From: a virus
Lineage: Duplodnaviria; Caudoviricetes
IMG/VR virus record: IMGVR_UViG_3300031578_000030
Location: 1-59,636 of that record
Reading direction: 5' to 3' (one strand)
DNA length: 59,636 nucleotides
Shown: positions 3,169-34,821 of the stretch, one piece after another
Numbering within the stretch: the first letter of the stretch is position 1
How the letters are laid out: every line of letters begins with the position of its first letter
Made by a program: the position numbers and the translations under genes
Notes under the pieces: model-generated
The model's database searches: none
What the model was told of the DNA's origin: nothing
What the model saw: the letters and a program-made list of their open reading frames with translations, nothing else

Positions 3169-4038
3169 TCATCTGGCCCGGAGCGGTTCGTAGTTCATCC
3201 ACAGCGACTCGACCATCTGCGGCTTCGTCTTCTTGCTGGACGCCTTGTTGTCGATCTTGAAGTCGACGCGGTGCCAACCGAAAGCTTTAGCCATTCGGGT
3301 ATACATGGGATTGTCGTAGCCACTCAACTGGAAGGTGCCCTGGATTCCGTTGAGCATTAACAGCAAATCCTCGTGCTGCGTAGGCGTCATCTCATGCCGA
3401 TAAGCGTTCTTCGCCGTCCGCGTCTCCTGTAAGTACGGCGGGTCACAGTAGAAGTGCGTGCGAGAACCGTCCTGCTGGTGAATTACATCCAAGGCTTCCT
3501 TGTTTAGAATGACAACTTGCTTCAACCGCTCATGGGCTTCAGGCAATCCCTCGACAGCCGACAGCCAAGACGCTACCTGCTCATTCATCCCGCGGCGCGT
3601 ACGGTTGCGTGAGAGGGTGGCGAAGTCCGTGCCGAGCCCCTGGCGGGATTGGCGGTAGCGGACGAAGAATCTTGCCGCCCGCTCTGCGGGTCTTTCGCCG
3701 AGTGATGCTTGAGCCAGATCCCACTCACTCTGCGAAAACGGTGTGAGAGCGACCTGCTGCTGGAAAAAATGAAAGAGACACTTGTCCTGCAACACTCGCC
3801 AGAACTCTGTAAGCTCGCGGTCGATATCGTTCACCACCTCCGAGCATCCCCGCATCGCCGCCGAGCCATCGTAGTCAGGCGCATCCTCACACCAGTTGCG
3901 GTTCGGATCATGGGCAAACAGCACGGCACCGCCGCCGAAGTACGGCTCGACGTAGTGCAAATGCGGAGGCATCAGCTCGACGATGCGCTTCGCTAAGTAG
4001 CGCTTGCCGCCGTGCCATTTCAGGGGTTGGCTTTTCAT
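3169..4038 (-). CDS. dam: DNA adenine methyltransferase (Dam/D12 class)
   Basis: LKWHGGK, YVEPYFGGGAV, VVNDID and FYCDPPY motifs. Confidence 0.9.
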   Translation of the reverse strand: MKSQPLKWHGGKRYLAKRIVELMPPHLHYVEPYFGGGAVLFAHDPNRNWCEDAPDYDGSAAMRGCSEVVNDIDRELTEFWRVLQDKCLFHFFQQQVALTPFSQSEWDLAQASLGERPAERAARFFVRYRQSRQGLGTDFATLSRNRTRRGMNEQVASWLSAVEGLPEAHERLKQVVILNKEALDVIHQQDGSRTHFYCDPPYLQETRTAKNAYRHEMTPTQHEDLLLMLNGIQGTFQLSGYDNPMYTRMAKAFGWHRVDFKIDNKASSKKTKPQMVESLWMNYEPLRAR

Positions 4039-4543: not shown

Positions 4544-4931
4544 CGCTTTCCTCCTCGCCCGCGAGGGCGTCGTGGGCTTCTGCTGTCGAGTGAGCCGCCG
4601 TGACCCAATCAGGCGGCGGAATACCATCAGCCACCAACTCTGGGTTCTCCCGTCGATACACTCCATCAAGCATCGCACAGATCAGCCTCAAGTCTTCCCG
4701 CAGCCGCTCGACCTCAGCGGCATCAACCATCAGTCGCTCGCAGTACACCGTCGCATCCATCTCAGCCCGCTGCCGATGCTTGGCTATCACCGTTGCGACA
4801 TTGGGATCTGTGTCGACTTCGTCGGGCGATTTGGCAAACGTCAGAGCAAAACACTTCGGACAAACGACTGGTAGATCGCTGTGATCGTCATTCAATCGCC
4901 GAAAATACTGGTCACACATTGAACAAATCAT
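4536..4931 (-). CDS. hypothetical protein (CxxC...CxxC)
   Basis: Coupled small ORF; ends LAGEEESDG. Confidence 0.6.
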   Translation of the reverse strand: MICSMCDQYFRRLNDDHSDLPVVCPKCFALTFAKSPDEVDTDPNVATVIAKHRQRAEMDATVYCERLMVDAAEVERLREDLRLICAMLDGVYRRENPELVADGIPPPDWVTAAHSTAEAHDALAGEEESDG

Positions 4932-5179
4932 CACTTGTTCTCCTCGCCCGCGAGGGCAGCCCGGTATCGGCAATCCTCTGCATGCCGCGCAGTGTCCGTC
5001 TCGTGCCGCAGGCCGCACGAACAGAGCTGGGATGCCAGGATGCGCCACAGCCGCTCGACCTCGCCGCATAAATCGTAAATAAGTCTGTGCGGCTTATCGA
5101 TCCACTGGGCAGCCAGTGGGCCGCTGTTACTTGGGGCATTCCGATAATCCGTTGTTGTTGTTCCCTTTGACAACATCAC
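4931..5179 (-). CDS. hypothetical protein
   Basis: 82 aa coupled ORF; ends LAGEENK. Confidence 0.6.
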   Translation of the reverse strand: MMLSKGTTTTDYRNAPSNSGPLAAQWIDKPHRLIYDLCGEVERLWRILASQLCSCGLRHETDTARHAEDCRYRAALAGEENK

Positions 5180-5415
5180 TTCTCCTCCTCGCCCGCGTGC
5201 TTATACCCCACCAGTAGGCACCGGTCACAGCATTGCGGTTTCAATCCGCCGTACTCATTGTCGCAATCACACGGCTGGTCTCGTACGTAGACCAGCAGCC
5301 GATCTCGCTGGCATGCCAATCGACGAGCAATGAGTTGAAGACTGGGTACGACGACAGTCGCAGATACCAGCTCAGCAACCTCCGCTTCTGTCGGCGGTAT
5401 TTGTAGTTCATTCAT
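5176..5415 (-). CDS. hypothetical protein
   Basis: 79 aa coupled ORF; ends AGEEEK. Confidence 0.6.
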   Translation of the reverse strand: MNELQIPPTEAEVAELVSATVVVPSLQLIARRLACQRDRLLVYVRDQPCDCDNEYGGLKPQCCDRCLLVGYKHAGEEEK

Positions 5416-5698
5416 CGCTCTTCTCCTCCTCGCCCGCGATTGCGGCGGCTTCGAGTTCTTGATTCAGCCTATCACACTCTGTGCAGTGCTCACGCGCCCA
5501 GTCGCCAGTAGTAATCTCGCAAATAGCACAGTCTGCCTGATGTTCCAGCAACGCGACTTTAGCCAGTAGCTGGTCGACCTTGGCAGCCAGCACGCGGCCG
5601 GCAGTGCGAAGACGTTCAACCGTACGCCAAGCGGCTTCGCGCCAGCCAGTCGTGGCGACGACCTCTCGGGCCCTGTCAATCGTCATTTCCTCAGTCAT
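5408..5698 (-). CDS. hypothetical protein
   Basis: 96 aa, AAGGAG RBS; ends AGEEEKSDE. Confidence 0.65.
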   Translation of the reverse strand: MTEEMTIDRAREVVATTGWREAAWRTVERLRTAGRVLAAKVDQLLAKVALLEHQADCAICEITTGDWAREHCTECDRLNQELEAAAIAGEEEKSDE

Positions 5699-5722
5699 CG
5701 GTTTCTCCTTCGGGGTTCTCGG

Positions 5723-6853
5723 TTACGAGTCACCTCCCGGTAGTGCGTTGTGCTCCTCCCCGTCGAGCAGGCGGCCGGCGAGCTTGCGGCCGACGCGGGT
5801 CATCACCACGACGGGATATCGAGCCTCCCCAAAATCTTTTCCCACGCGACATACTTTGCTGTTTAGGTCCAGGCAGACATCACCTTTCGCAACGTGCGTC
5901 GACGCCTTGTTTACCCAGTGCTGAAACGTATCAAAGCGATATGTCTCGGCATACTCGCCAAGATGTTTCAGAAAGAACGGCACGCCCGCCGCCGCACACT
6001 GGTCGCGCAGACTACGGAAGTGGTCGGGATGCGACGGCCGAGCGCCCGGGCCCGTCTCACCGCCGGCGATGACGAGGTCGATATCGCTACGTTTATCAGC
6101 ATTGACACGATAGTGCAGAAGCCCTAGCCCCACTTCCCCCAGCAACGGCTCGCACGATACGAACCGCACGGCCGCAGGGATGTCCAGCAAGATCGGGATT
6201 CGCTCGTCTGCCCGCTCCTGGTCTTCGGCAGTCACGCCAAGCCAGACGTTTGACAGCGGCCATCGACGCCAATGGTAATTACCACGTTTGTTCGCTCGTC
6301 GAGGCCTATCTTCGATGCGAGCATGCGGGTCGATCCCATCCGCCGAATCGTAAATAAACCGCAATTCGGGAGTTGGGGGCGTGGGCACTTGGTGCGGCCT
6401 GGCGAGATCGACGTTATGCCGCTGGTAGAAGTCAATCAGTCCAGATGTGTAGAGATTCTGGTGAACGGGCCCTCGCTCAGCAACCCGACGAAACCAGGCT
6501 GCCATTCGGTCAACGCGCTTAGTGAGCACTTGAAAAACATGCTGCGAAGCGGATGCCATCACCGCGAAAACCTTGTCGATAAACTCGAAAGGCACGTCCT
6601 TATGGAACAGATCGCCCATACTGCACGGGAAGACCATTCGTGGCTTCCGCCAGTGCAACGGCTCCTCCAGCCGCTCCGGCCAGCACGAAACCTTGAAGCC
6701 CTTGTATCGCTTCCGATGCTTGACGCTCGGCATCGCCGCCAGCCGCTGGGCCATTCGGCGAGCGTAGCAGTTCGCACAGCCTGGCGAGACCGGCGTACAA
6801 CCCGTGACCGGGTTCCAGGTCGATTCGGTCCATTCAATTGATGATCTACCCAT
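5723..6853 (-). CDS. DUF5131 / phage Gp37Gp68 family protein (radical-SAM-like)
   Basis: SSIEWTESTWNPVTGCTPVSPGCANCYA, SMGDLFH, QVLTKR, RFVSCEPLL, GGETGPGARP. Confidence 0.9.
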   Translation of the reverse strand: MGRSSIEWTESTWNPVTGCTPVSPGCANCYARRMAQRLAAMPSVKHRKRYKGFKVSCWPERLEEPLHWRKPRMVFPCSMGDLFHKDVPFEFIDKVFAVMASASQHVFQVLTKRVDRMAAWFRRVAERGPVHQNLYTSGLIDFYQRHNVDLARPHQVPTPPTPELRFIYDSADGIDPHARIEDRPRRANKRGNYHWRRWPLSNVWLGVTAEDQERADERIPILLDIPAAVRFVSCEPLLGEVGLGLLHYRVNADKRSDIDLVIAGGETGPGARPSHPDHFRSLRDQCAAAGVPFFLKHLGEYAETYRFDTFQHWVNKASTHVAKGDVCLDLNSKVCRVGKDFGEARYPVVVMTRVGRKLAGRLLDGEEHNALPGGDS

Positions 6854-7079
6854 CGCTCGCTCCCGCCAATTCGGCAATAGCTTTCAATCGTTCTGGTTGA
6901 ATCCGCGCATCACTGCACGCTCTGGTCCACTTGCCGACGTACCGTTTCAGTCGCCGACATCGTCCACGAGTCGTGCACGAACAGCAGTCACAACACAGCC
7001 AGCCCGCGATTATCATGCCCGGTACGGGCTCGCGGAGTGGCTTTCGCTGTCCGTCACTGGAGAGATACCAATTACTCAT
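6846..7079 (-). CDS. hypothetical protein
   Basis: 77 aa coupled ORF. Confidence 0.5.
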   Translation of the reverse strand: MSNWYLSSDGQRKPLREPVPGMIIAGWLCCDCCSCTTRGRCRRLKRYVGKWTRACSDARIQPERLKAIAELAGASDG

Positions 7080-7336: not shown

Positions 7337-7666
7337 TCACTCCTCTCCTGCCGCTGTTGCGGCTGCCTTTGCTTCGTATTCCTGCGAGTAGATACAGTTA
7401 TCGCAAAAATGGCAGGGCGCCTCGCCGTAGTCGAGACACGTACCTTCGCTTTCCGTGTCGAACAGCGTCCCGCACACTTCGCACCGCTCGATATGATCGG
7501 GCACCTGCCAGTGAAGTTCGCCGAGATACCAAATCACGGTCCACGCTTGCTCGGCCGTCAACATCGGCATACTTGCCGGCTCAATGCAGTATCCGTCGGG
7601 GAGGGTGCCTTGCAGAAACGCAAACAACTCCTCCGTGCGTTCCAGGTCGTTTTTGGGATCACTCAT
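7337..7666 (-). CDS. hypothetical protein (Zn-binding C-terminus)
   Basis: Start MSDPKND after GGAGG; CEVC...CDNC. Confidence 0.65.
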   Translation of the reverse strand: MSDPKNDLERTEELFAFLQGTLPDGYCIEPASMPMLTAEQAWTVIWYLGELHWQVPDHIERCEVCGTLFDTESEGTCLDYGEAPCHFCDNCIYSQEYEAKAAATAAGEE

Positions 7667-7694
7667 GTCTTCCCTCCTGCCGCTGCTGCGGCTC

Positions 7695-7898
7695 TTAGAC
7701 ATTTCCGGGCCCAGCATCGGTTGAATCGTCGTAAGGATCTGGTGCCAGTGGCAGTATCCGCGGGTGCTTTGCAACACCACGGCAGTCCTGCTCTAGAGCG
7801 CGCACTTCTCTACGGTACTCTGCTGGGCGAATACGCCCTTCGTTCAATTGACGATCTAGCTCGTCCATCGCGCGGTCAAATTCATCCTGGATTCCCAT
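7695..7898 (-). CDS. hypothetical protein
   Basis: Start MGIQDEF after GGAGG. Confidence 0.5.
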   Translation of the reverse strand: MGIQDEFDRAMDELDRQLNEGRIRPAEYRREVRALEQDCRGVAKHPRILPLAPDPYDDSTDAGPGNV

Positions 7899-7978
7899 CG
7901 CTCGCTCCCTCCACCGTCGCGGCTTCTGTTGCTTGCTTGTCGAGCCAATTGCCCGCCGGCAGTGGCACCAGCTCTTCT

Positions 7979-8392
7979 TCATGGTACAGCCGCAGACTGG
8001 CTGACGTGACGTGCGCAGATAAACACCGGTTCGCCGTTTGGCGCAGTTGCCCCGAAATCTGCAACATCACCACAGTAGACCGGACCCGACTGCACATCGT
8101 AGCCGATCAGGCGACCACAGCGCTCCACTTCATTATCGCCGATCATACGCCAATGGGTACATTCGTCGGTAGCCACTGGGGTGCCACCGGGGGCGTAATC
8201 ACCCTGTAACGATTTGGCAAACGCTTTGTTTATGGTTGACCTCTCGCCGCTACTGCGGCTTGCTATTCCAGTTTCCACCTGTACCGCGGCCGATCCTTGT
8301 CCAGGATGATCAGCCGCCCGTTCGGCCGCCTCTGCGGCCTCGCGGGTCTTGCCGGTGCCGGCCCCGCCGATCAGCTTAACTACCTGAACCAT
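7979..8392 (-). pseudogene. possible truncated P-loop helicase N-terminus fused to unrelated sequence
   Basis: Begins VVKLIGGAGTGKT (Walker A) but has no further helicase motifs. Confidence 0.4.
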
Positions 8393-8579
8393 TGTGCCAC
8401 CTTTCTGCCATAATCTCGAACGGCCCCCGCCCACCGGATTCAACGCAGAGTGGGCTTACCGCAACCTCCTCCATTTCCTCATAGCCCAACGGGCCAAAGG
8501 TAAAGGCATAGTCCCTGGGATGCTTGCAAACTGGCACGAAATACCGGGCCGGGCCAATGGTCATTTGGGTTGTTCGCAT
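8376..8579 (-). CDS. hypothetical protein
   Basis: 67 aa with GAGGAG RBS just downstream of the repeat array. Confidence 0.45.
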   Translation of the reverse strand: MRTTQMTIGPARYFVPVCKHPRDYAFTFGPLGYEEMEEVAVSPLCVESGGRGPFEIMAERWHNGSGS

Positions 8580-8658
8580 TCGTCGCTCCTCGAAACGTCC
8601 CGCTCCGCCGCCCAGCTTCGCCCAGGTTGCGATGGACGAGGCTGGGGGGGGTTGAGGT

Positions 8659-9139
8659 CGGCTCGCTCATCGCTAACGCACATCCCGATTCGCGGCTCGC
8701 TCACACACCTCGCACATCGCGATAGTCGACTCGCTCTTAGCCAGCGCACATCATCACTCCCGACTCGCTCTACGGCTTCGCACATCCCCATACACGACTC
8801 GCTCCAGAGGTTCGCACATCTTCGGCCGCGGCTCGCTCATTGGCTTCGCACATCCGCTCTTTCGGCTCGCTCATCCCTCACGCACATCCGAACTAGCGGC
8901 TCGCTCATCGCTAACGCACATCGTAGCTTGCGGCTCGCTCGACGGCACCGCACATCTCAACCATCGGCTCGCTCCACTCTTTCGCACATCAAAAAGGGCG
9001 GCTCGCTCCCGCTACTCGCACATCGCCGACCCCGGCTCGCTCCGCATCAACGCACATCTTGCACAGCGGCTCGCTCGGGCTTTACGCACATCACGCCATA
9101 CGGCTCGCTCCCCTATCGCGCACATCGTACACAACGGCT
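8659..9139 (-). ncRNA. TIGR-like dual-repeat guide-RNA array, 14 units of 34 nt
   Basis: + strand unit is CGRCTCGCTC-N8-CGCACATC-N8, starting at 8659, 8693, 8727 ... 9101 with an exact 34-nt period, plus a partial repeat CGGCT at 9135-9139. In sense (- strand): AGCCG-N8-GATGTGCG-N8-GAGCG. Confidence 0.85.
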
Positions 9140-10049
9140 ATTCTTCTCCTAGCAATCGCCCCAATGAATGCCCTTCGTACTTGCCCGGCCACAGTGGCGG
9201 CGTGATCAGGTGCGTATGCTGCCGTCCGTCGTGCTCGAACACGTACGGCTTCGGGGCTGCCGTGCCGTGGAAATCCTCGTACATCACCTGATGAAGATGA
9301 GAGAGAAACAGCTTGACCGCCACCCGCCGCGCCCACTCGTGCAAGTGTTGTGGGCACAATCGGCCAGCCTCCCAATCCTTCCATCGCGGCTTGACCTTCA
9401 TCTTCCTCAGCAAGGCCGGGCTGGCTTCGCATCGTTCGATTTCTCGCCGTGCGTGCTCGACAAAGCCGCTCGCCTCGTTACGACGGATCAAGGCAGCCTT
9501 CGTCTCGGCGTAGAACCGGCCATACACGCTGCTCTCCCGGCTGGACGTGCGGACAAAACATTCACCCATTCGATACGCGACAATGCTTTTGAGCGGCGCG
9601 TTCCAGGGGCGTTTCTGGCCCTTCTCCCACTTCGCATCGGGATTCAACCCTGCAAACGACCAGAAGTGACCAGCAGTCAACGCCCGGCGGATGTCAAAAT
9701 GAGCGAGCATCGCGGCCGACAGGACGGGGCCGATCCCACATTGTGCTTGGCACCACTGACCAACTCGATAGGAGCCGGCAAACCGTCCGAGACTCGCCTT
9801 CAAGACATTCTCGAAAACGCGCATGGTATTGAATGCCCACGCAATGAGCCGATTCGGTTCAGCGTCCTCTTGGCTACTGCGGACTTGGGCCTGCGCTCGA
9901 ATCCGTTCATCCTGGACGATGTAGTAGAGATCGATCAGGAATCGGCCGTCCCGCTGTGTGAGGTCTTGTGATGCCTCCCGAATGTCCCGAGACAATTCGC
10001 GGAACGGAGCTGCCAATTCAAGCGGCAAAGTGTCGAGAACGGTACTCAT
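9138..10049 (-). CDS. TasA-like Nop-domain RNA-binding protein (IS110 C-terminal-like, no nuclease domain)
   Basis: 303 aa from an ATG with AGGAGA RBS (frame is open back to a GTG at 10337). Motifs: YYIVQDERIR helix, GIGPVLSAAML..FD, FWSFAGL, GQKRPWN, HLHEWARRVAVKLFLSHL. No DEDD RuvC or HNH. Stop codon overlaps the array. Confidence 0.8.
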   Translation of the reverse strand: MSTVLDTLPLELAAPFRELSRDIREASQDLTQRDGRFLIDLYYIVQDERIRAQAQVRSSQEDAEPNRLIAWAFNTMRVFENVLKASLGRFAGSYRVGQWCQAQCGIGPVLSAAMLAHFDIRRALTAGHFWSFAGLNPDAKWEKGQKRPWNAPLKSIVAYRMGECFVRTSSRESSVYGRFYAETKAALIRRNEASGFVEHARREIERCEASPALLRKMKVKPRWKDWEAGRLCPQHLHEWARRVAVKLFLSHLHQVMYEDFHGTAAPKPYVFEHDGRQHTHLITPPLWPGKYEGHSLGRLLGEE

Positions 10050-10333
10050 TCGAGTCTCCTGTAAAAAGGGTATCACTTGGTTTCCGTTTGTTCTTTCATG
10101 GCCAACGCTGCCGATCGACCTCAGCCATGAACCGCTCGCAGGCCCCCTGTGTCCTCGATCCCCGACATCATCCGCCTGGCCCTTCGCCTTCGCCTTCCGC
10201 CCGGGCCGGCAGCCGAATCGGCTCGCCGCGTATGGCCTCGCCCGTCTAACAAACTGGAAGCGAGGGGAAAACCTTTTCGGTTCGGTTCTGTTCCCACCTA
10301 ACAAATCGGACTCGTCGGCAGAATCTTTCGGGT

Positions 10334-10789
10334 TCACTCCGATTCAACAAACGCCCTCCGCTCCTCATCCGTCAGCCGTGCGGATTCAGTCGGCAGCCGC
10401 CTCAGCCCCCGTCCCGGCGATCTCGCGTGTACTTCCACTCGCGATACCACCAACGCCGCCAACCGCGGCCCCATCCGGTCGAACCAGTCGAAACCCGACT
10501 TCACCCGTCGCCGCTCAACCAAACTGAGACCCTCCGCCCAATGGATCGTGCCCGGGCGACCGTCGGCCTGCGGCGGATCCTGAACCGCCAGGATCAGACA
10601 GCGGGTGTTGCCGACACGGAAGCCGGCGGCCTGCGGTAGCGCGGCCCCACGACCGCCCCCACCCTCGCCCTCACCTTCGCCGCCAGGCAACGCGCAGCCA
10701 GGGGAAGGTTGTAGCCCCGCGATCTGCGGTGTCGCGACCAACTGCGAATCCGGTCGACTTTCGATTAGTGCAAATAGGGGGTGTGACAT
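10334..10789 (-). CDS. hypothetical protein
   Basis: 151 aa ORF between the putative origin and the Tas-like gene. Confidence 0.45.
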   Translation of the reverse strand: MSHPLFALIESRPDSQLVATPQIAGLQPSPGCALPGGEGEGEGGGGRGAALPQAAGFRVGNTRCLILAVQDPPQADGRPGTIHWAEGLSLVERRRVKSGFDWFDRMGPRLAALVVSRVEVHARSPGRGLRRLPTESARLTDEERRAFVESE

Positions 10790-10819
10790 AAGGTGTTGTC
10801 CTGCAACTGGTTATGGCTA

Positions 10820-11030
10820 CGTCCTATAGGCGTCCTATGAGCGTTCCATGAAGCAGTTTTCGTAAGTCCTTACTATGTAAGGCCGTGTCCTATGCGTCCT
10901 ATACGTCCCATGACTTCCACAACTTCTCTAATGCGCGTGTGTGTGCGTGTGTGCGCGCGCCTAAGGATTAAATGGAAACACTAGGACGCATGGGACATCT
11001 GGACGTTATCTGGACGCCACCTGGAGGTTC
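10820..11030. repeat. putative replication origin: oppositely oriented 9-mer iterons flanking a 30-bp alternating purine/pyrimidine tract
   Basis: YGTCC(T/C)ATR-like repeats at 10820, 10831, 10842, 10886, 10895 and 10904; inverted copies at 10981-11016; RY tract at 10931-10960; lies immediately downstream of the primase-helicase. Confidence 0.6.
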
Positions 11031-11076
11031 GTATACGGTTAGGCAATGTAAGACACCCTGGTAAATTAAGATATAT

Positions 11077-13533
11077 TCAAAAATTAAGCGCGTTTTGGTT
11101 ATCTGGGGTATTTTGCTCCACCTCACCTAACTCCACCAAAACGATCCCGGCGTACGCATACATGCGGTTGCCATCTGATCCGAGCCGCCTTCTTTTCACA
11201 CCGTTGAACACCCGCACGACCTCCCGGCCGAACAGTCTCTCCCCCAGTGAGTGGTATCCGTGAGACCTGCACCAGCGGCAGTACGTGTCGTAAAGCGTGG
11301 AGCAAAACACGCTCGCGTTGGGCTCCTTGCTAGCCTCGCAACACTCGGTCAGAAACGCGCGGGCAGGGTTGATCTCCTCTCGGTACTCCTCGACCGCCGT
11401 CCGTGACTGAGTGCTTTCAGTGAACCCACCTTGCCGCCGCAGCCGGTGGAGGCCGAGCACGGCCCACCAGAAGATGCCCGGTAATTCGCTTGAGCGTTCC
11501 CACCACTCCGGCTTGTCCATGCCGAGAATCCGCTCTTCTGGCGGGATTGTGATGTTGAACTGGATGACCATCATGCGGCGCCACAGGCCACCTGACCGAT
11601 CAGAGAAACGGGGCCGGTTGTTCGCACTGAGGACAAAACGGGCTGTGGGCATGGCGAAGAATGACCGCTTGTGTTTCGCCTCAAAAAGCATCCGGTCTCC
11701 GGAGGTAAACGACTTGAGAACACCTTCGGCAGCCCGGTCCATCTCAGAGCACTCAGTGGCGATGTTGGCCAGCTTGCCGAGGGTAGTCTCCAGGTCGAAG
11801 CGACCGCCGAATCGTTCCAGCGAGACGTGGGAGACATTCTGACGCCCCAGTAAGGCGATCAGCGCGGCACAAAAGACACTCTTGCCGTTATTCCCGTCAC
11901 CCTCCAGGAAGAGAAACCGCTGGAGGTTGGTGTCGTGTGTCAGGCAATAGCCGCACCACTCTTGGAGTGTGGCAATATCTTCCCGCCGGCTCTCCAAGAC
12001 ACGATCCAGAAAGGCGTCCCATTTCGGACTTTGGCAGTTTTTGCACGTTGTATCGACCGGATAGGGCAAAAACACTTGGCTGAACCAGTTGGGGGAATGT
12101 GGCAGGTTCCAATCGTCGCGCTGTTCAATGAACGCATCTACGTCCAGAAGGCAGTTTTGCACCGCCACGCAGTTGGGCCGCTGGGTGCCGTCGGTCCATG
12201 TTTGCCACTCGATGTACGACGGGAGTTTGATCATTGAGTGTACGGCCTGAATCACGTCGCTTATGAGCCGCGTGGTTACTTTCTGAACCTTAGCTGTTTC
12301 CTCTTCTTCGTCTTTCGCCTGACCACCTTTCCGTCTCGCCAAGGCCCGTAGCTGCTTGTCCACATTGATCCGATCGAATTCCGTCTTGACGCCCCTGGTT
12401 AAGTCCGCTCGCAAGTCTTCCGTGAACAGTGGCCGATAGTACGGATCTCTCGGATCCCACGACCAGTAGAAGCCTCGCCAGAACACGACTCGTTCATACG
12501 GGCAATGCTCGTCCAGAAAGACATGGGCAAGCCGGTGGGGGTCATCGTCGGCCGCCTCGGCGTCCATCTCTATGGGGATGTACGTCGGCGTGGCTGCCAC
12601 GATTTCTAGAAAACGGTTGCGCGTGCCGCCGGCCGCAATCCACTCGACGATATCTCCCTTCAGCGGCAGATTGGGGAGTTTTAGAATCCGGACGTCGGCC
12701 CCGGGCTTCAGTCGCCGGAGCTTGGCGACCATGATCTGGCCAAATGCCTCGCCCGCCGGATCGTTGTCGACCACTGCGACCACGGTGGCAAAGCGGAGTA
12801 CCGGGGACCAGTCGGCGTAATTCATGGATTTTTCGCCGCCGGCGTTGGTTGTGGCCACCAGGCCGAGCGCGGCCGCCGCGTCGACAGCCTTCTCGCCAGC
12901 GTGAATCGTCACGAGGTCGGCAGGCGCCGCTGCCTCGATCTCCTGGCGGCGGTATAGCGGCCGTGGTCCGGGCGGGTAGCCTGCCTGCCAGCCCATACCG
13001 CCCTCCAGGCCGAGCGGCACTTGATGGACCGGCCGATATTCTTTTCGCTGCTTCTCGCCGGCTGGAGTCGGCAAGTCGAAGCGTAGCACCCAGAAGGTGT
13101 CATACTGCCACTTGCCGGCCAACCGCACGCCGCGGCCGTGCTGCCTCTCCAGCAACTCCACGTAATACCGCACGATGCCGCGGGGCGTGGCGAACAGCCT
13201 GGGCTCGGCCGGCTTGCTGTTGCTCTTGTGGAGCGGCTTGGCCCCCAGGTATTCGCAGAGTGTGCTGACCACTTCCTTGAATGGTCGCCCGGTCAGCCAA
13301 CCGAGGGCCGCGATGCCATCGCCGTTCTTGGTGGAGAAACACTGGTTGCAGAACAGAGCACCGTTATCGAGGTCGATTGCACGAAACCGATCCACGCCGC
13401 CGCACTTCGGGCACGGCCCGTGTCTCTTCTGGCAACCCGGGTCAAGCTGAACGCCCGCAATCGTGGCAAAGATGTCTTGCCATCGACCGCGTGCGAGGGC
13501 CTTGAGTTCGGTGATGTTGACTTTCCGTGCCAT
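11077..13533 (-). CDS. P4-family primase/helicase (Zn ribbon + TOPRIM + D5/SF3 helicase)
   Basis: HGPCPKCGGVDRF, AGEKAVDA/DND, GDGNNGKS Walker A, SANNRPRF. Confidence 0.9.
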   Translation of the reverse strand: MARKVNITELKALARGRWQDIFATIAGVQLDPGCQKRHGPCPKCGGVDRFRAIDLDNGALFCNQCFSTKNGDGIAALGWLTGRPFKEVVSTLCEYLGAKPLHKSNSKPAEPRLFATPRGIVRYYVELLERQHGRGVRLAGKWQYDTFWVLRFDLPTPAGEKQRKEYRPVHQVPLGLEGGMGWQAGYPPGPRPLYRRQEIEAAAPADLVTIHAGEKAVDAAAALGLVATTNAGGEKSMNYADWSPVLRFATVVAVVDNDPAGEAFGQIMVAKLRRLKPGADVRILKLPNLPLKGDIVEWIAAGGTRNRFLEIVAATPTYIPIEMDAEAADDDPHRLAHVFLDEHCPYERVVFWRGFYWSWDPRDPYYRPLFTEDLRADLTRGVKTEFDRINVDKQLRALARRKGGQAKDEEEETAKVQKVTTRLISDVIQAVHSMIKLPSYIEWQTWTDGTQRPNCVAVQNCLLDVDAFIEQRDDWNLPHSPNWFSQVFLPYPVDTTCKNCQSPKWDAFLDRVLESRREDIATLQEWCGYCLTHDTNLQRFLFLEGDGNNGKSVFCAALIALLGRQNVSHVSLERFGGRFDLETTLGKLANIATECSEMDRAAEGVLKSFTSGDRMLFEAKHKRSFFAMPTARFVLSANNRPRFSDRSGGLWRRMMVIQFNITIPPEERILGMDKPEWWERSSELPGIFWWAVLGLHRLRRQGGFTESTQSRTAVEEYREEINPARAFLTECCEASKEPNASVFCSTLYDTYCRWCRSHGYHSLGERLFGREVVRVFNGVKRRRLGSDGNRMYAYAGIVLVELGEVEQNTPDNQNALNF

Positions 13534-17881: not shown

Positions 17882-18175
17882 TCATGGCCTCGCAGAGAAA
17901 AGATGATAGCACGACCCCGACCACGACCGCGACCACGACCCCGACCGCGACCCCGACCACGACCCCGACCCCGACCGCGACCCCGACCACGACCCCGACC
18001 CCGACCGCGACCACGACCGCGACCACGACCCCGACCGCGACCGCGACCACGACCACGACTCCGCCCCCGCCCCCGACCACGACTCCGACCCCGACCCCGA
18101 CCCCGACCACGACTCCGACCCCGACCCCAGCCGCGAGGATCCCCAATCGGCTCGCAAGATTGTTTGATTCATCAT
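17882..18175 (-). CDS. Ser/Gly/Trp low-complexity protein
   Basis: ATGA coupling to the upstream gene; S-[GWRE] dipeptide repeats. Confidence 0.5.
   Translation of the reverse strand: MMNQTILRADWGSSRLGSGSESWSGSGSGSESWSGAGAESWSWSRSRSGSWSRSWSRSGSGSWSGSRSGSGSWSGSRSGSWSRSWSGSCYHLFSARP
17912..18126. repeat. hexanucleotide tandem repeat (V)CGAC(C/T)
   Basis: About 35 tandem CCGACC/ACGACC/GCGACC/CCGACT units. Confidence 0.9.
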
Positions 18176-25738: not shown

Positions 25739-25813
25739 TGGGGGAGGCGGGAATCGAACCCGCAACCTCGGGCTTATGAAGCCCGCGAGCTAACCGTGTT
25801 GCTCCACTCCCCG
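25739..25813 (-). tRNA. tRNA-Met (CAT), initiator-like
   Basis: CGGGGAG TGGAGCAACACGGTTAGCTCG CGGGC TTCATAA GCCCG AGGTT GCGGG TTCGATT CCCGC CTCCCCC A; full cloverleaf, unpaired 1:72, A11:U24. Confidence 0.9.
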
Positions 25814-31295: not shown

Positions 31296-32282
31296 ATGCA
31301 CCGCCGCCATGCGTTTACCCTAGCCGAATTGCTCGTCACCATGACGATCATTGGCATGCTGGCCGCCGCGACCTTGGGAGGTCTGATGGCCAGCCGTCGC
31401 CAAGCGAGGATTCAGCAGACTCGCGCGACGATCGTCAAACTTGACCGGATCATCTCTCAGAAGTGGGACGCCTACCGCACTCGCCAACTGCCAATCAGCA
31501 TGGGTACGTTGCGGCACTCCTGCGAGGAAGAGGTCGAACTGCCTCCGCCGCCCTGGTGGTCCGATCCAAGCAAGCCCTACACGGTAAAGCGCATAAACGC
31601 CAGCGAAGTTCGGCGGTTTCTGACCAATACGCGGCGCGACCTGATCCGTATGGAACTGCCCGACCGTTGGTCAGACGTGACTAATCCACCGTTGGTCTTG
31701 GAGAAGACGCCGGCAGTCACACTCCGTTTCCGCCGTCTCCGAGATCAGGCGATCGCCCGTGGCGTACCGGAGGCCACGGTCAACGGGTACGCTTCGCCGG
31801 AACTACTCTACATGATCGTCTCGCAAACCTCCGAAGACTTGGCATTATTCCACGATCGGGAGTTTGGCGATGTGGACGGCGACGGGCTTAGAGAGTTCCA
31901 TGACTCGTGGGGCCGGCCGATCGCTTTCGTCCGTTGGCCCGCCGGGTTCATGGCTACGTACGATGCTGTTGATAGCGTGATCGACCCAAGCCTCCAGGAC
32001 CCATACGATCCCGACAACCTCACTGGTTGCTACGCCCTACATCCGCTTGTCTACAGCCCGGGGCCCGACGGACAGTATGACATCAATCGCGGGACGCAGC
32101 CGAGTGGGACTTACGCCTACCGGCTCGACGGGCGAGGGAATATCGATACCTGCACGCCGGATGAAAACGAGGGTGGCTACCTGATCGGGCAACCGCTTGA
32201 CGCCACGATGCCCGACGGCTCACCAGCAGATGAACACTTGGGGCATCACGACAACATCCACAATCACGGGCTACGTCCGTAA
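31296..32282 (+). CDS. prepilin-type N-terminal cleavage/methylation domain protein (type II secretion pseudopilin-like)
   Basis: RRHA-FTLAELLVTMTIIGML signal; DVDGDG..EFHDSWGRPI; LVYSPGPDG; DNIHNH. Confidence 0.85.
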   Translation: MHRRHAFTLAELLVTMTIIGMLAAATLGGLMASRRQARIQQTRATIVKLDRIISQKWDAYRTRQLPISMGTLRHSCEEEVELPPPPWWSDPSKPYTVKRINASEVRRFLTNTRRDLIRMELPDRWSDVTNPPLVLEKTPAVTLRFRRLRDQAIARGVPEATVNGYASPELLYMIVSQTSEDLALFHDREFGDVDGDGLREFHDSWGRPIAFVRWPAGFMATYDAVDSVIDPSLQDPYDPDNLTGCYALHPLVYSPGPDGQYDINRGTQPSGTYAYRLDGRGNIDTCTPDENEGGYLIGQPLDATMPDGSPADEHLGHHDNIHNHGLRP

Positions 32283-33171: not shown

Positions 33172-33859
33172 GCCCCGCTGTCTCAGCGTCCAGTTGCGGG
33201 TGGATCATACCGCCGGGCTGCCGGACCACAACCCGCCCGGCCCTCTCGTACCAGTCCGACTTGCCCATAAAATGCTGAGCGTGGTATGAGTGCGTGCTGC
33301 CCCAGCGAAAGACGTAGCTTGGGGCCATCACCCTGCACGGATCTCCCGGCGGGCCGAACTGCCGGGCCAGGCTGCCGAGTAGCTGCTGATCAAACGTGGC
33401 GTCCCGCGTATCGGGCCAGCCGCCGACTTGCTCCAGCGCCTCACGTCGTACCGCCAGACTGCCGTGAAAGCGCCCCGCAGCCCCCTCTTGATGCAACTTG
33501 CCATAGAGGCTCCAGACTGTCGACGGGTGGCTCCATGGGCCCTCGGCCAGGGCCGCCGCGTGGGCCTCCAGGTGCCAGGGCAGATAGACGTCGTCATCGT
33601 CCCAGACGACGAAGGCGTCGGCGTCCGGTGACATCGTGACCATCGCATTGTACTTCGCCGAGATCGTCGGGTAGCGGTCGGGAGTCGAGAGAACCTGCCA
33701 ACCCGGGCCGGACTGCTCCGGCCATTGGCCGGCATCGTCCAGGACCAGGAGCCGCCGCTGATCCGCCGGGTAGGTCTGGGCCTCGAAGCAGGCGACTGTA
33801 TTCCGTAGCAGCGCCGACGGCCGGCGAAACGTCGGGCAGAGACAGACGATCAAGGACAT
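33137..33859 (-). CDS. glycosyltransferase family 2
   Basis: CLCPTFRRP, QTYP, LVLDD, VVWDDDDVYLPWHL. Confidence 0.85.
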   Translation of the reverse strand: MSLIVCLCPTFRRPSALLRNTVACFEAQTYPADQRRLLVLDDAGQWPEQSGPGWQVLSTPDRYPTISAKYNAMVTMSPDADAFVVWDDDDVYLPWHLEAHAAALAEGPWSHPSTVWSLYGKLHQEGAAGRFHGSLAVRREALEQVGGWPDTRDATFDQQLLGSLARQFGPPGDPCRVMAPSYVFRWGSTHSYHAQHFMGKSDWYERAGRVVVRQPGGMIHPQLDAETAGLMTRLTVPNYR

Positions 33860-34821
33860 GCGCTTTCCCTCCATCGTTTGAAGCCCGGCCAGGTAGCGTG
33901 TCCGACCGGATCGGCAAGCAGGTAATCCCACTGTTCCGGTGTCATCAGGAAATTTGGCCCTGCCCCCTCGCTCCCGTCTAGCGGTATCTCGATCACGCCC
34001 TCAACGAAGTGGCCGTATAGCCGGTCTAACGACAAACCAAGTTCCTGAAGTTCCAACATGTAATTGCGGACCTTGTGCCACTGCGTTACCGGGTAACGCA
34101 TGCCAGTTGGGCGACTATACCGATGGAGCCAGCGTAAACCCGGCAGGCAGAGACAGCGGCGGCTGAGCTGCCGGAATTTCTCGTGGATGTACCACTCTTC
34201 ACCGCCGAACCCGCAGGCATACGGGTGGAAGCCCGGCCACGCGGCCTTGCGGCACGAGAACAGCCCGAGGCCCATCGCACCGATCTCGAACGGCTCGCCG
34301 TCCGGGTCCTCGCCGCGGGCATCATGGCCCCAGATACCCCACATTTCGGCCCGCCACACATCCTGGAAGTGCGTCGCCACCCCGCCCGACAGCAGGTCAT
34401 CGTAGAGCATCGGACCGGACAACAGGTCGTCACAGCCCGGGTTCGCATCGTAGTAATCCAACAGCCGCCGAATCGCGCCCGGCTGGAGCATCACGTGTGA
34501 GTCGAGACACAGGACGGTATCGCCGACAGCTTCGGTGAAGACACGATCCCGCGGCGGCGACGTGCCAACGGGCTCTTCCATCGGGACATAGCGGGCCCGC
34601 GCGTGGGGGCCGATCCAGCCTTCGATCAGATTCTTGAGCCGCGGTGCGCTGCGGGTCTTGGGGCCGTTGTCCACGACGATCAACTCACAGCGGGGCATCA
34701 CCTCGGCATGGTGGAGCCGGAGCGACTGGAGGGTCATCCACGCACCGGCGAAGTCGTCGTAGCATGCCATCCCGATCGTCAACGCCGGTTTACTGCCCAC
34801 GGTTAACCCCTTGTGTCGCAT
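33850..34821 (-). CDS. glycosyltransferase family 2
   Basis: LTIGMACYDD, ELIVVDN, VLCLDSH, GFGGEE. Confidence 0.85.
   Translation of the reverse strand: MRHKGLTVGSKPALTIGMACYDDFAGAWMTLQSLRLHHAEVMPRCELIVVDNGPKTRSAPRLKNLIEGWIGPHARARYVPMEEPVGTSPPRDRVFTEAVGDTVLCLDSHVMLQPGAIRRLLDYYDANPGCDDLLSGPMLYDDLLSGGVATHFQDVWRAEMWGIWGHDARGEDPDGEPFEIGAMGLGLFSCRKAAWPGFHPYACGFGGEEWYIHEKFRQLSRRCLCLPGLRWLHRYSRPTGMRYPVTQWHKVRNYMLELQELGLSLDRLYGHFVEGVIEIPLDGSEGAGPNFLMTPEQWDYLLADPVGHATWPGFKRWRESACP

Follow-up and report, generated by a model that had tools for sequence, protein, structure and literature searches.

Dual-repeat TIGR arrays are described in the available text of Faure 2025 (PMC12045711) as alternating repeats of 8–12 nt with spacers near 9 nt, the sizes varying between loci, and SpTIGR is given there 16 variable bases per guide. 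A preprint (bioRxiv 10.64898/2026.09.09.750476), in the part available, gives the length of dual-repeat guides as a typical, uniform or fixed 36 nt, with units chained over 4–5-base gaps. The described system nearest in organization is FpTasA of Flavonifractor plautii (cluster node3901 in Table S1 of PMC12045711), a solo Nop protein adjoining an edge/loop array of 5–15 units whose first edge is truncated. Two further relatives carry nucleases. SpTIGR-TasH of Salicola phage CGphi29 (PDB 21KL, 9W03, 9W04), as the accessible portion of PMC13421893 describes it, has an HNH nuclease, cuts DNA and uses a 10-nt loop repeat in a 36-nt unit, with Y289 and H296 named as processing residues; TaTasR (PDB 9MTY) has a RuvC nuclease, 9-nt variable spacers, and UG and CCA boxes. 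MbTasA and PlTasA are nuclease-free, and guided DNA binding has been shown for both, but the available texts (bioRxiv 10.64898/2026.09.09.750476, 10.64898/2026.08.11.744272) place them with stem-loop arrays and in clades that lack the Tyr/His processing loop; MbTasA represses transcription without cutting in E. coli (bioRxiv 10.64898/2026.09.09.750476, same portion). The IS110 bridge recombinases (IS621, ISCro4) share a related RNA-binding domain and have in addition a catalytic N-terminal domain and a single bridge RNA.

The locus studied here, in a viral record of 59,636 bases analysed at its full length (the window), is a dual-repeat TIGR-TasA formed by a solo Nop-domain protein and its array (Table 1). 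The system is already known, since Faure 2025 (PMC12045711) lists an identical 303-residue sequence as Tas, in Table S1 rows 5786, 5789 and 5887. It resembles FpTasA in its solo protein, adjoining array and truncated first edge, but its unit is 34 rather than 36 nt, its repeats end in CG rather than CA, its array closes on a full edge with no terminator-like site found, and no ParB-like partner occurs among the neighbours scanned. With SpTIGR it has in common 8 variable bases per spacer and 8 of 10 edge bases, the two edges differing only at their first and last base; the TaTasR edge has the same core. Neither the catalytic domain nor the single bridge RNA of the IS110 recombinases is present. 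The preliminary description had proposed a TasA-type TIGR-Tas system, a reading supported by the fold, the missing nuclease, the repeat grammar, the linkage of homologues to arrays and the identical Table S1 protein.

Table 1. Features of the TIGR-TasA locus in window coordinates
Feature	Position	Strand	Basis or detail
tasA, 303 aa: short N-terminal helix, coiled coil (about residues 32–92), Nop domain; no RuvC or HNH	9138..10049	-	Profile, AlphaFold2 model, fold search
AGGAGA, ribosome-binding-site-like, five bases 5' of ATG	10055..10060	-	Sequence
Codons Y269 to H278, counterpart of the SpTasH guide-processing pair Y289/H296	9216..9245	-	Alignment to SpTasH
Dual-repeat TIGR array	8659..9139	-	14 units of 34 nt: edge 10, spacer A 8, loop 8, spacer B 8
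AGCCG, an edge repeat cut short at its 5' end, across the tasA stop codon	9135..9139	-	Sequence
Spacer B of unit 7, same sequence as spacer B of unit 14	8907..8914	-	Sequence
Three neighbouring T-variant edge repeats	8727..8804	-	Box pair predicted to be kept as G-U, in part from covariation in relatives
Spacer B of unit 14, reused half-guide with unrelated spacer A	8669..8676	-	Sequence
Closing full edge repeat of the array	8668-8659	-	Sequence

Phage setting

The record is that of a temperate tailed phage, with terminase, portal, head and tape-measure genes together with genes for a tyrosine integrase, a primase, a helicase and a methyltransferase. The locus lies 3' of the primase gene among minus-strand genes, and neither PHROG nor Pfam gives a match for the three small frames that flank it. 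Directly after the integrase, a plus-strand gene with a pilin-type N-terminal methylation motif (31296-32282) is possible host-derived cargo. Such genes are, we presume, typical of Planctomycetota; together with a tasA homologue from a Planctomycetes genome (52% identical), this hints at a host in that phylum. Elsewhere the window has one tRNA-Met(CAT) gene (25739-25813, minus strand), a glycosyltransferase family 2 gene among the tail-region genes (33850-34821, minus strand) and about 36 copies of a 6-nt repeat at 17912-18128, probably a low-complexity coding stretch.

A nuclease-free Nop-domain protein

We favour the 303-residue start of tasA over a 399-residue GTG frame because AGGAGA precedes the ATG and because full-length homologues of about 300 residues start at the same place. 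A Nop/IS110-like protein without RuvC or HNH domains had been proposed from the letters alone; the sequence motifs named in support are present in the frame 10049-9138, and Pfam, the structural model and the fold search all bear the proposal out. Pfam returns a weak Transposase_20 match, below the curated cut-off, and no nuclease family. A sequence search against solved structures places TasR 9MTY first (E 1.2e-9), with TasH at E 0.0035, and a 48-sequence profile reaches E 2e-21 for TasR and 8e-11 for TasH versus 2e-4 and 6e-4 for IS110 transposases.

The AlphaFold2 model of the 303-residue protein (mean pLDDT 92) is almost entirely helical. TasH and TasR chains fill all of the top 10 Foldseek rows, and VIA puts TasH at Z 18.9 (3.4 rmsd, 220 aligned) and TasR at Z 17.9 (2.2 rmsd, 194 aligned), IS110 chains third (ISCro4 transposase, Z 12.5) and all others at Z below 10. 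This is the comparison of 9138-10049 with Tas and IS110 proteins that had been suggested as a check. The structural match begins at residue 30, which leaves no room for a nuclease domain; the N-terminal 30 residues are helical and too short for HNH or RuvC. In an alignment to SpTasH, Y269, E272 and H278 face Y289, E292 and H296, so that by sequence the putative Tyr/His guide-processing pair is kept, and among 120 clade proteins the tyrosine is found in 105 and the histidine in 118. At several further SpTasH residues named in PMC13421893, the aligned residues of the 303-residue protein are not alike.

A dual-repeat array of 34-nt units

Recounting the sequence confirmed the array as first described: 14 units of 34 nt in which 10-nt and 8-nt repeats alternate around 8-nt spacers, 28 spacers in all, headed by a half edge repeat that starts at 9139 and runs over the gene's TAG. 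The loop repeat GATGTGCG occurs in 14 exact copies at a 34-base step from 9126 to 8684 on the minus strand, and the edge repeat GAGCGAG(C/T)CG in 14 copies from 9110 to 8668, with C at the variable position in 11 and T in 3. Every spacer is exactly 8 nt and 27 of the 28 are distinct. Outside the array, the 59.6 kb contain the edge motif once and the loop motif twice. Contigs from three of three soil DNA runs cover 7500-11500 without a difference, joint or indel, and this agreement argues against an assembly slip, although each run is possibly the source of the window and the three are not independent. No RNA data set was listed among the holders of this stretch.

Edge and loop repeats both begin with GA and finish with CG, and in the edge G3 faces C or T and C4 faces G; the two repeats therefore have box-like motifs in common, with a box pair and a second edge pair. 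In relatives, pairing between position 3 and the third base from the end is possible for 355 of 462 edge types and 464 of 659 loop types. The loop repeat's own pair, U-G across two bases, is doubtful. With a loop of 8 nt, only these two bases separate the partners of the predicted box pair, and the loop may be bound differently than in the solved structures. By itself the array transcript does not fold stably (z 1.22). Dual-repeat arrays typically close on a truncated edge with a terminator behind it; here a simple scan 3' of the array found no terminator-like site on its strand, and the final edge is full.

At 34 nt the unit departs from the published 36, which we treat as typical and not defining because sizes vary between loci and because this protein is itself listed as Tas. 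The sizes of its parts fall inside the published range, given that repeats are defined as 8–12 nt and spacers as near 9 nt. The literature searched contains no mention of 34-nt tigRNA units; figs S4 and S5 of Faure 2025 might show such arrays. The array finder TIGRFinder allows gaps of 4–5 bases only and so probably misses 34-nt arrays with a two-base loop gap.

Array grammar among relatives

We collected 1,399 homologues and drew 161 loci from collections of viral and metagenome DNA: the 80 best of 494, the 80 best of at least 551 and a single further one. Some of these loci are duplicates, the same DNA being present in both collections. With an array defined as a chain of at least five repeats with 8-nt spacers, arrays lie on the gene's strand in 135 of the 161 loci, and in 1 also on the other strand; shuffled controls gave a chain in 0 of 162 loci (window included), and many of the loci that lack one are short contigs. 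The association of homologues with dual-repeat arrays, whose absence the preliminary description had named as grounds for rejecting its reading, thus holds.

Arrays were parsed for 120 distinct proteins, of which 91 have units of 36 nt, 12 of 34 nt, 8 of 35 nt, 8 of 37 nt and 1 of 32 nt, about five of the 34- and 32-nt calls being mis-parses. A stricter list retains 10+8 units in eight other loci (L076, L081, L130, L132, L157, L161, L166 and L187). In a 52-row tree, a fully supported group joins the window to five proteins having 11+9 arrays ending in G, apart from the other 10+8 arrays. The 10+8 label needs 4 changes on this tree, though the AU test does not reject one origin for all 10+8 arrays (p 0.087). 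Two positions in the protein vary with the final base of the edge repeat: Ala stands at residue 222 in 102 of the 105 proteins whose edges end in A versus 5 of the 15 whose edges end in G, and at residue 238 in 92 of 105 versus 3 of 15, both counts uncorrected for kinship. A scan for arrays built from the window's same two repeats gave two single matches, without a tas gene, and the 303-residue protein has no match among GenBank phages at E 1e-5.

Three relatives have arrays of their own character. A 34-nt unit is made from two 9-nt repeats beside a 49% identical protein (L003, 3861-3989). On a Woesearchaeota genome contig, a TasA locus (L187, about 4800-7000) has at least 26 guides with 8-nt loops. 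In L169 (4796-5173) two different edge repeats alternate almost strictly, giving a 72-nt super-period that may reflect growth by two-unit blocks; the pattern is weaker in L093 and L166.

Half-guides recur with new partners

Spacer B of unit 7 recurs in unit 14 beside an unrelated spacer A. After arrays sharing spacers were merged, reuse with unrelated partners amounts to 16 cases in 14 of 90 arrays (1,074 guides, window included), whereas 200 within-array shuffles average 0.46 cases and never exceed 3. Reuse across slots, an A serving as B, is seen in 3 cases (null mean 0.4, maximum 3). One unit in the long array at L030 (1699-2832) is a clear chimaera, with the B of an earlier unit and the A of a later one. 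Because reuse with new partners lies so far above the null, it points to recombination or copying at the repeats, shuffling half-guides, as the simplest reading. The searched portions of PMC12045711 and bioRxiv 10.64898/2026.09.09.750476 hold nothing on half-guide reuse.

Target searches

The target geometry, spacer A followed by the reverse complement of spacer B, was derived from the 8-nt 3' overhang and the C-5 rule in Faure 2025, and other geometries served as controls. By our estimate, a 16-base site gives tens of chance matches per guide across the whole public collections. The preliminary description had put forward host genes and competing elements as targets; neither class was confirmed, as the searches described below found no target.

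In the phage's own genome the 14 guides gave nothing above controls (four geometries, gaps of -1 to 3, up to 3 mismatches): no site has 0–1 mismatch, and the best ones, whose halves overlap or stand 3 bases apart, carry 2 mismatches, just as in the controls. Across the clade, 22 whole or partial TasA phage genomes supplied 261 guides, none of which has a site with 0–1 mismatch in the genome it comes from. Purely synonymous near-matches to own genes, a sign of kin targeting, numbered 0 in six gap models. Because own-genome targets are absent here and across the clade, we take the targets to be foreign. Searches beyond the own genome stayed at control level, both for cross-targets among 204 loci plus the window and for 1,234 clade guides against 7.06 million sites, where exact cross-matches numbered 2, 2, 4 and 1 at gaps of -1, 0, 1 and 2 versus 0–6 in controls. 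The 14 guides have no exact match in 293 loci that include terminase relatives. The nearest phages that the search reached share only about 70% DNA identity with the window across their packaging and head genes, so the true kin were unsampled in this search.

Guide 5 (unit 8975-9008) matches the tasA gene of L007 (about 3367-3384) at 17 of 18 positions, predicted central bases included, in a conserved W-x-K-G-x-K stretch, and we keep it as a lead; matches of that quality to tas genes come from 2 of 1,212 guides versus 0–1 in three controls, so that targeting of other phages' tas genes does not rise above controls. A fixed GC between the halves is unconvincing (13 of 84 near-matches versus 5–9 of 65–79 in four of five controls). 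A one-base overlap of the halves gave no signal (z -0.6, 1,127 pairs).

These results bear on what the guides are for. The likeliest target class is other mobile elements that share the phage's host, rival or related phages for instance, and among the classes considered we give it about an even chance; the role is reached by exclusion, no target having been found anywhere. The same machine might instead silence host defence or regulatory genes during infection or lysogeny, and the available text of bioRxiv 10.64898/2026.09.09.750476 does report a Tas system redirected to silence a chromosomal E. coli gene. We consider this use unlikely, though a serious competitor. No guide recurs in relatives, the closest being 4 mismatches of 16 away, whereas conserved host targets might give recurrence, and the 11 guides of one integrated relative have no 0–1-mismatch site in 0.8 Mb of its bacterial genome of about 3.1 Mb, which, as a quarter of one genome, is weak evidence.

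Action on the phage's own DNA, controlling lytic genes or bending DNA under RNA guidance in aid of the integrase, appears distinctly improbable. The phage does have a tyrosine integrase, an integrase-assisting bend is speculated on in the available text of Faure 2025 (PMC12045711), and spacer A5 equals the 8 bases just before the tasA ribosome-binding site (10063-10070, minus strand). However, the partner half of A5 is unmatched there, single 8-mer matches to the own genome are common (57 for the 28 spacers), the integrase gene is 20 kb distant, and no own site matches both halves, in keeping with the empty self-target searches.

Proposed mode of action

We hold with good confidence that a temperate tailed phage here encodes a dual-repeat TIGR-TasA acting as a non-cutting guided DNA binder, and with still greater confidence that its molecular mechanism would follow the solved TasR and TasH complexes, by analogy with which it is drawn. 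The gene and array would be transcribed together in the phage replication region, which the half edge overlapping the tasA stop codon makes plausible. By the example of SpTasH and TaTasR, TasA would dimerize through its coiled coil, one subunit gripping an edge repeat and the other a loop repeat, and the Y269/H278 pair would cut inside the edge repeat, yielding 13–14 guides of 34 nt. In each guide, spacer A and spacer B would pair with opposite DNA strands, opening 16 bp in all and free of a PAM, or 18 bp should the fixed G behind each spacer pair as well. The nuclease-free complex would then occupy its site uncut and block transcription or replication.

A locus in decay, in which the shortened loop and changed box ends broke guide binding, is slightly less probable again than action on the phage's own DNA. 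In favour of decay are the loop, two bases short of that in most relatives (36-nt units in 91 of 120 proteins), and W239, at a position where 113 of the 120 have Arg. Yet the reading frame is intact with its processing pair, the 14 loops are identical, all spacers are exactly 8 nt and the edge variant still pairs by prediction; W239 is moreover common to three close homologues, and 10+8 units recur in the eight other loci. That an IS110 transposase remnant simply lies beside an unrelated repeat, as the sub-threshold Transposase_20 match, the 'transposase' label of PHROG 4285 and the third place of IS110 in the fold search might suggest, is refuted in the main and has a negligible probability, since Tas structures score far higher, the model has no catalytic N-terminal DEDD domain, and hundreds of homologues are of similar size, most with arrays, for a protein already listed as Tas.

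Returning to the non-cutting guided binder, a more specific version of it is tentative, and we lean somewhat against it: a working 34-nt guide with a two-base loop gap, G-ending boxes and matched protein changes (at 222 and 238, with the G ending), combined with half-guide swapping at the repeats that would give new specificities without an adaptation enzyme.

Significance

The family, its nuclease-free subtype and this exact protein are published, and as a system the locus adds little. It makes two small departures from the published texts, the 34-nt unit and one spacer reused with an unrelated partner. The first suggests that current array finders miss a subset of arrays and, if natural 34-nt guides with so short a loop are indeed in use, would give a lower limit to work from when guides are designed for a compact programmable DNA binder. 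The second concerns how TIGR arrays rearrange, a process that both main papers, in their available text, call unknown, and for which half-guide reuse provides a countable trace.
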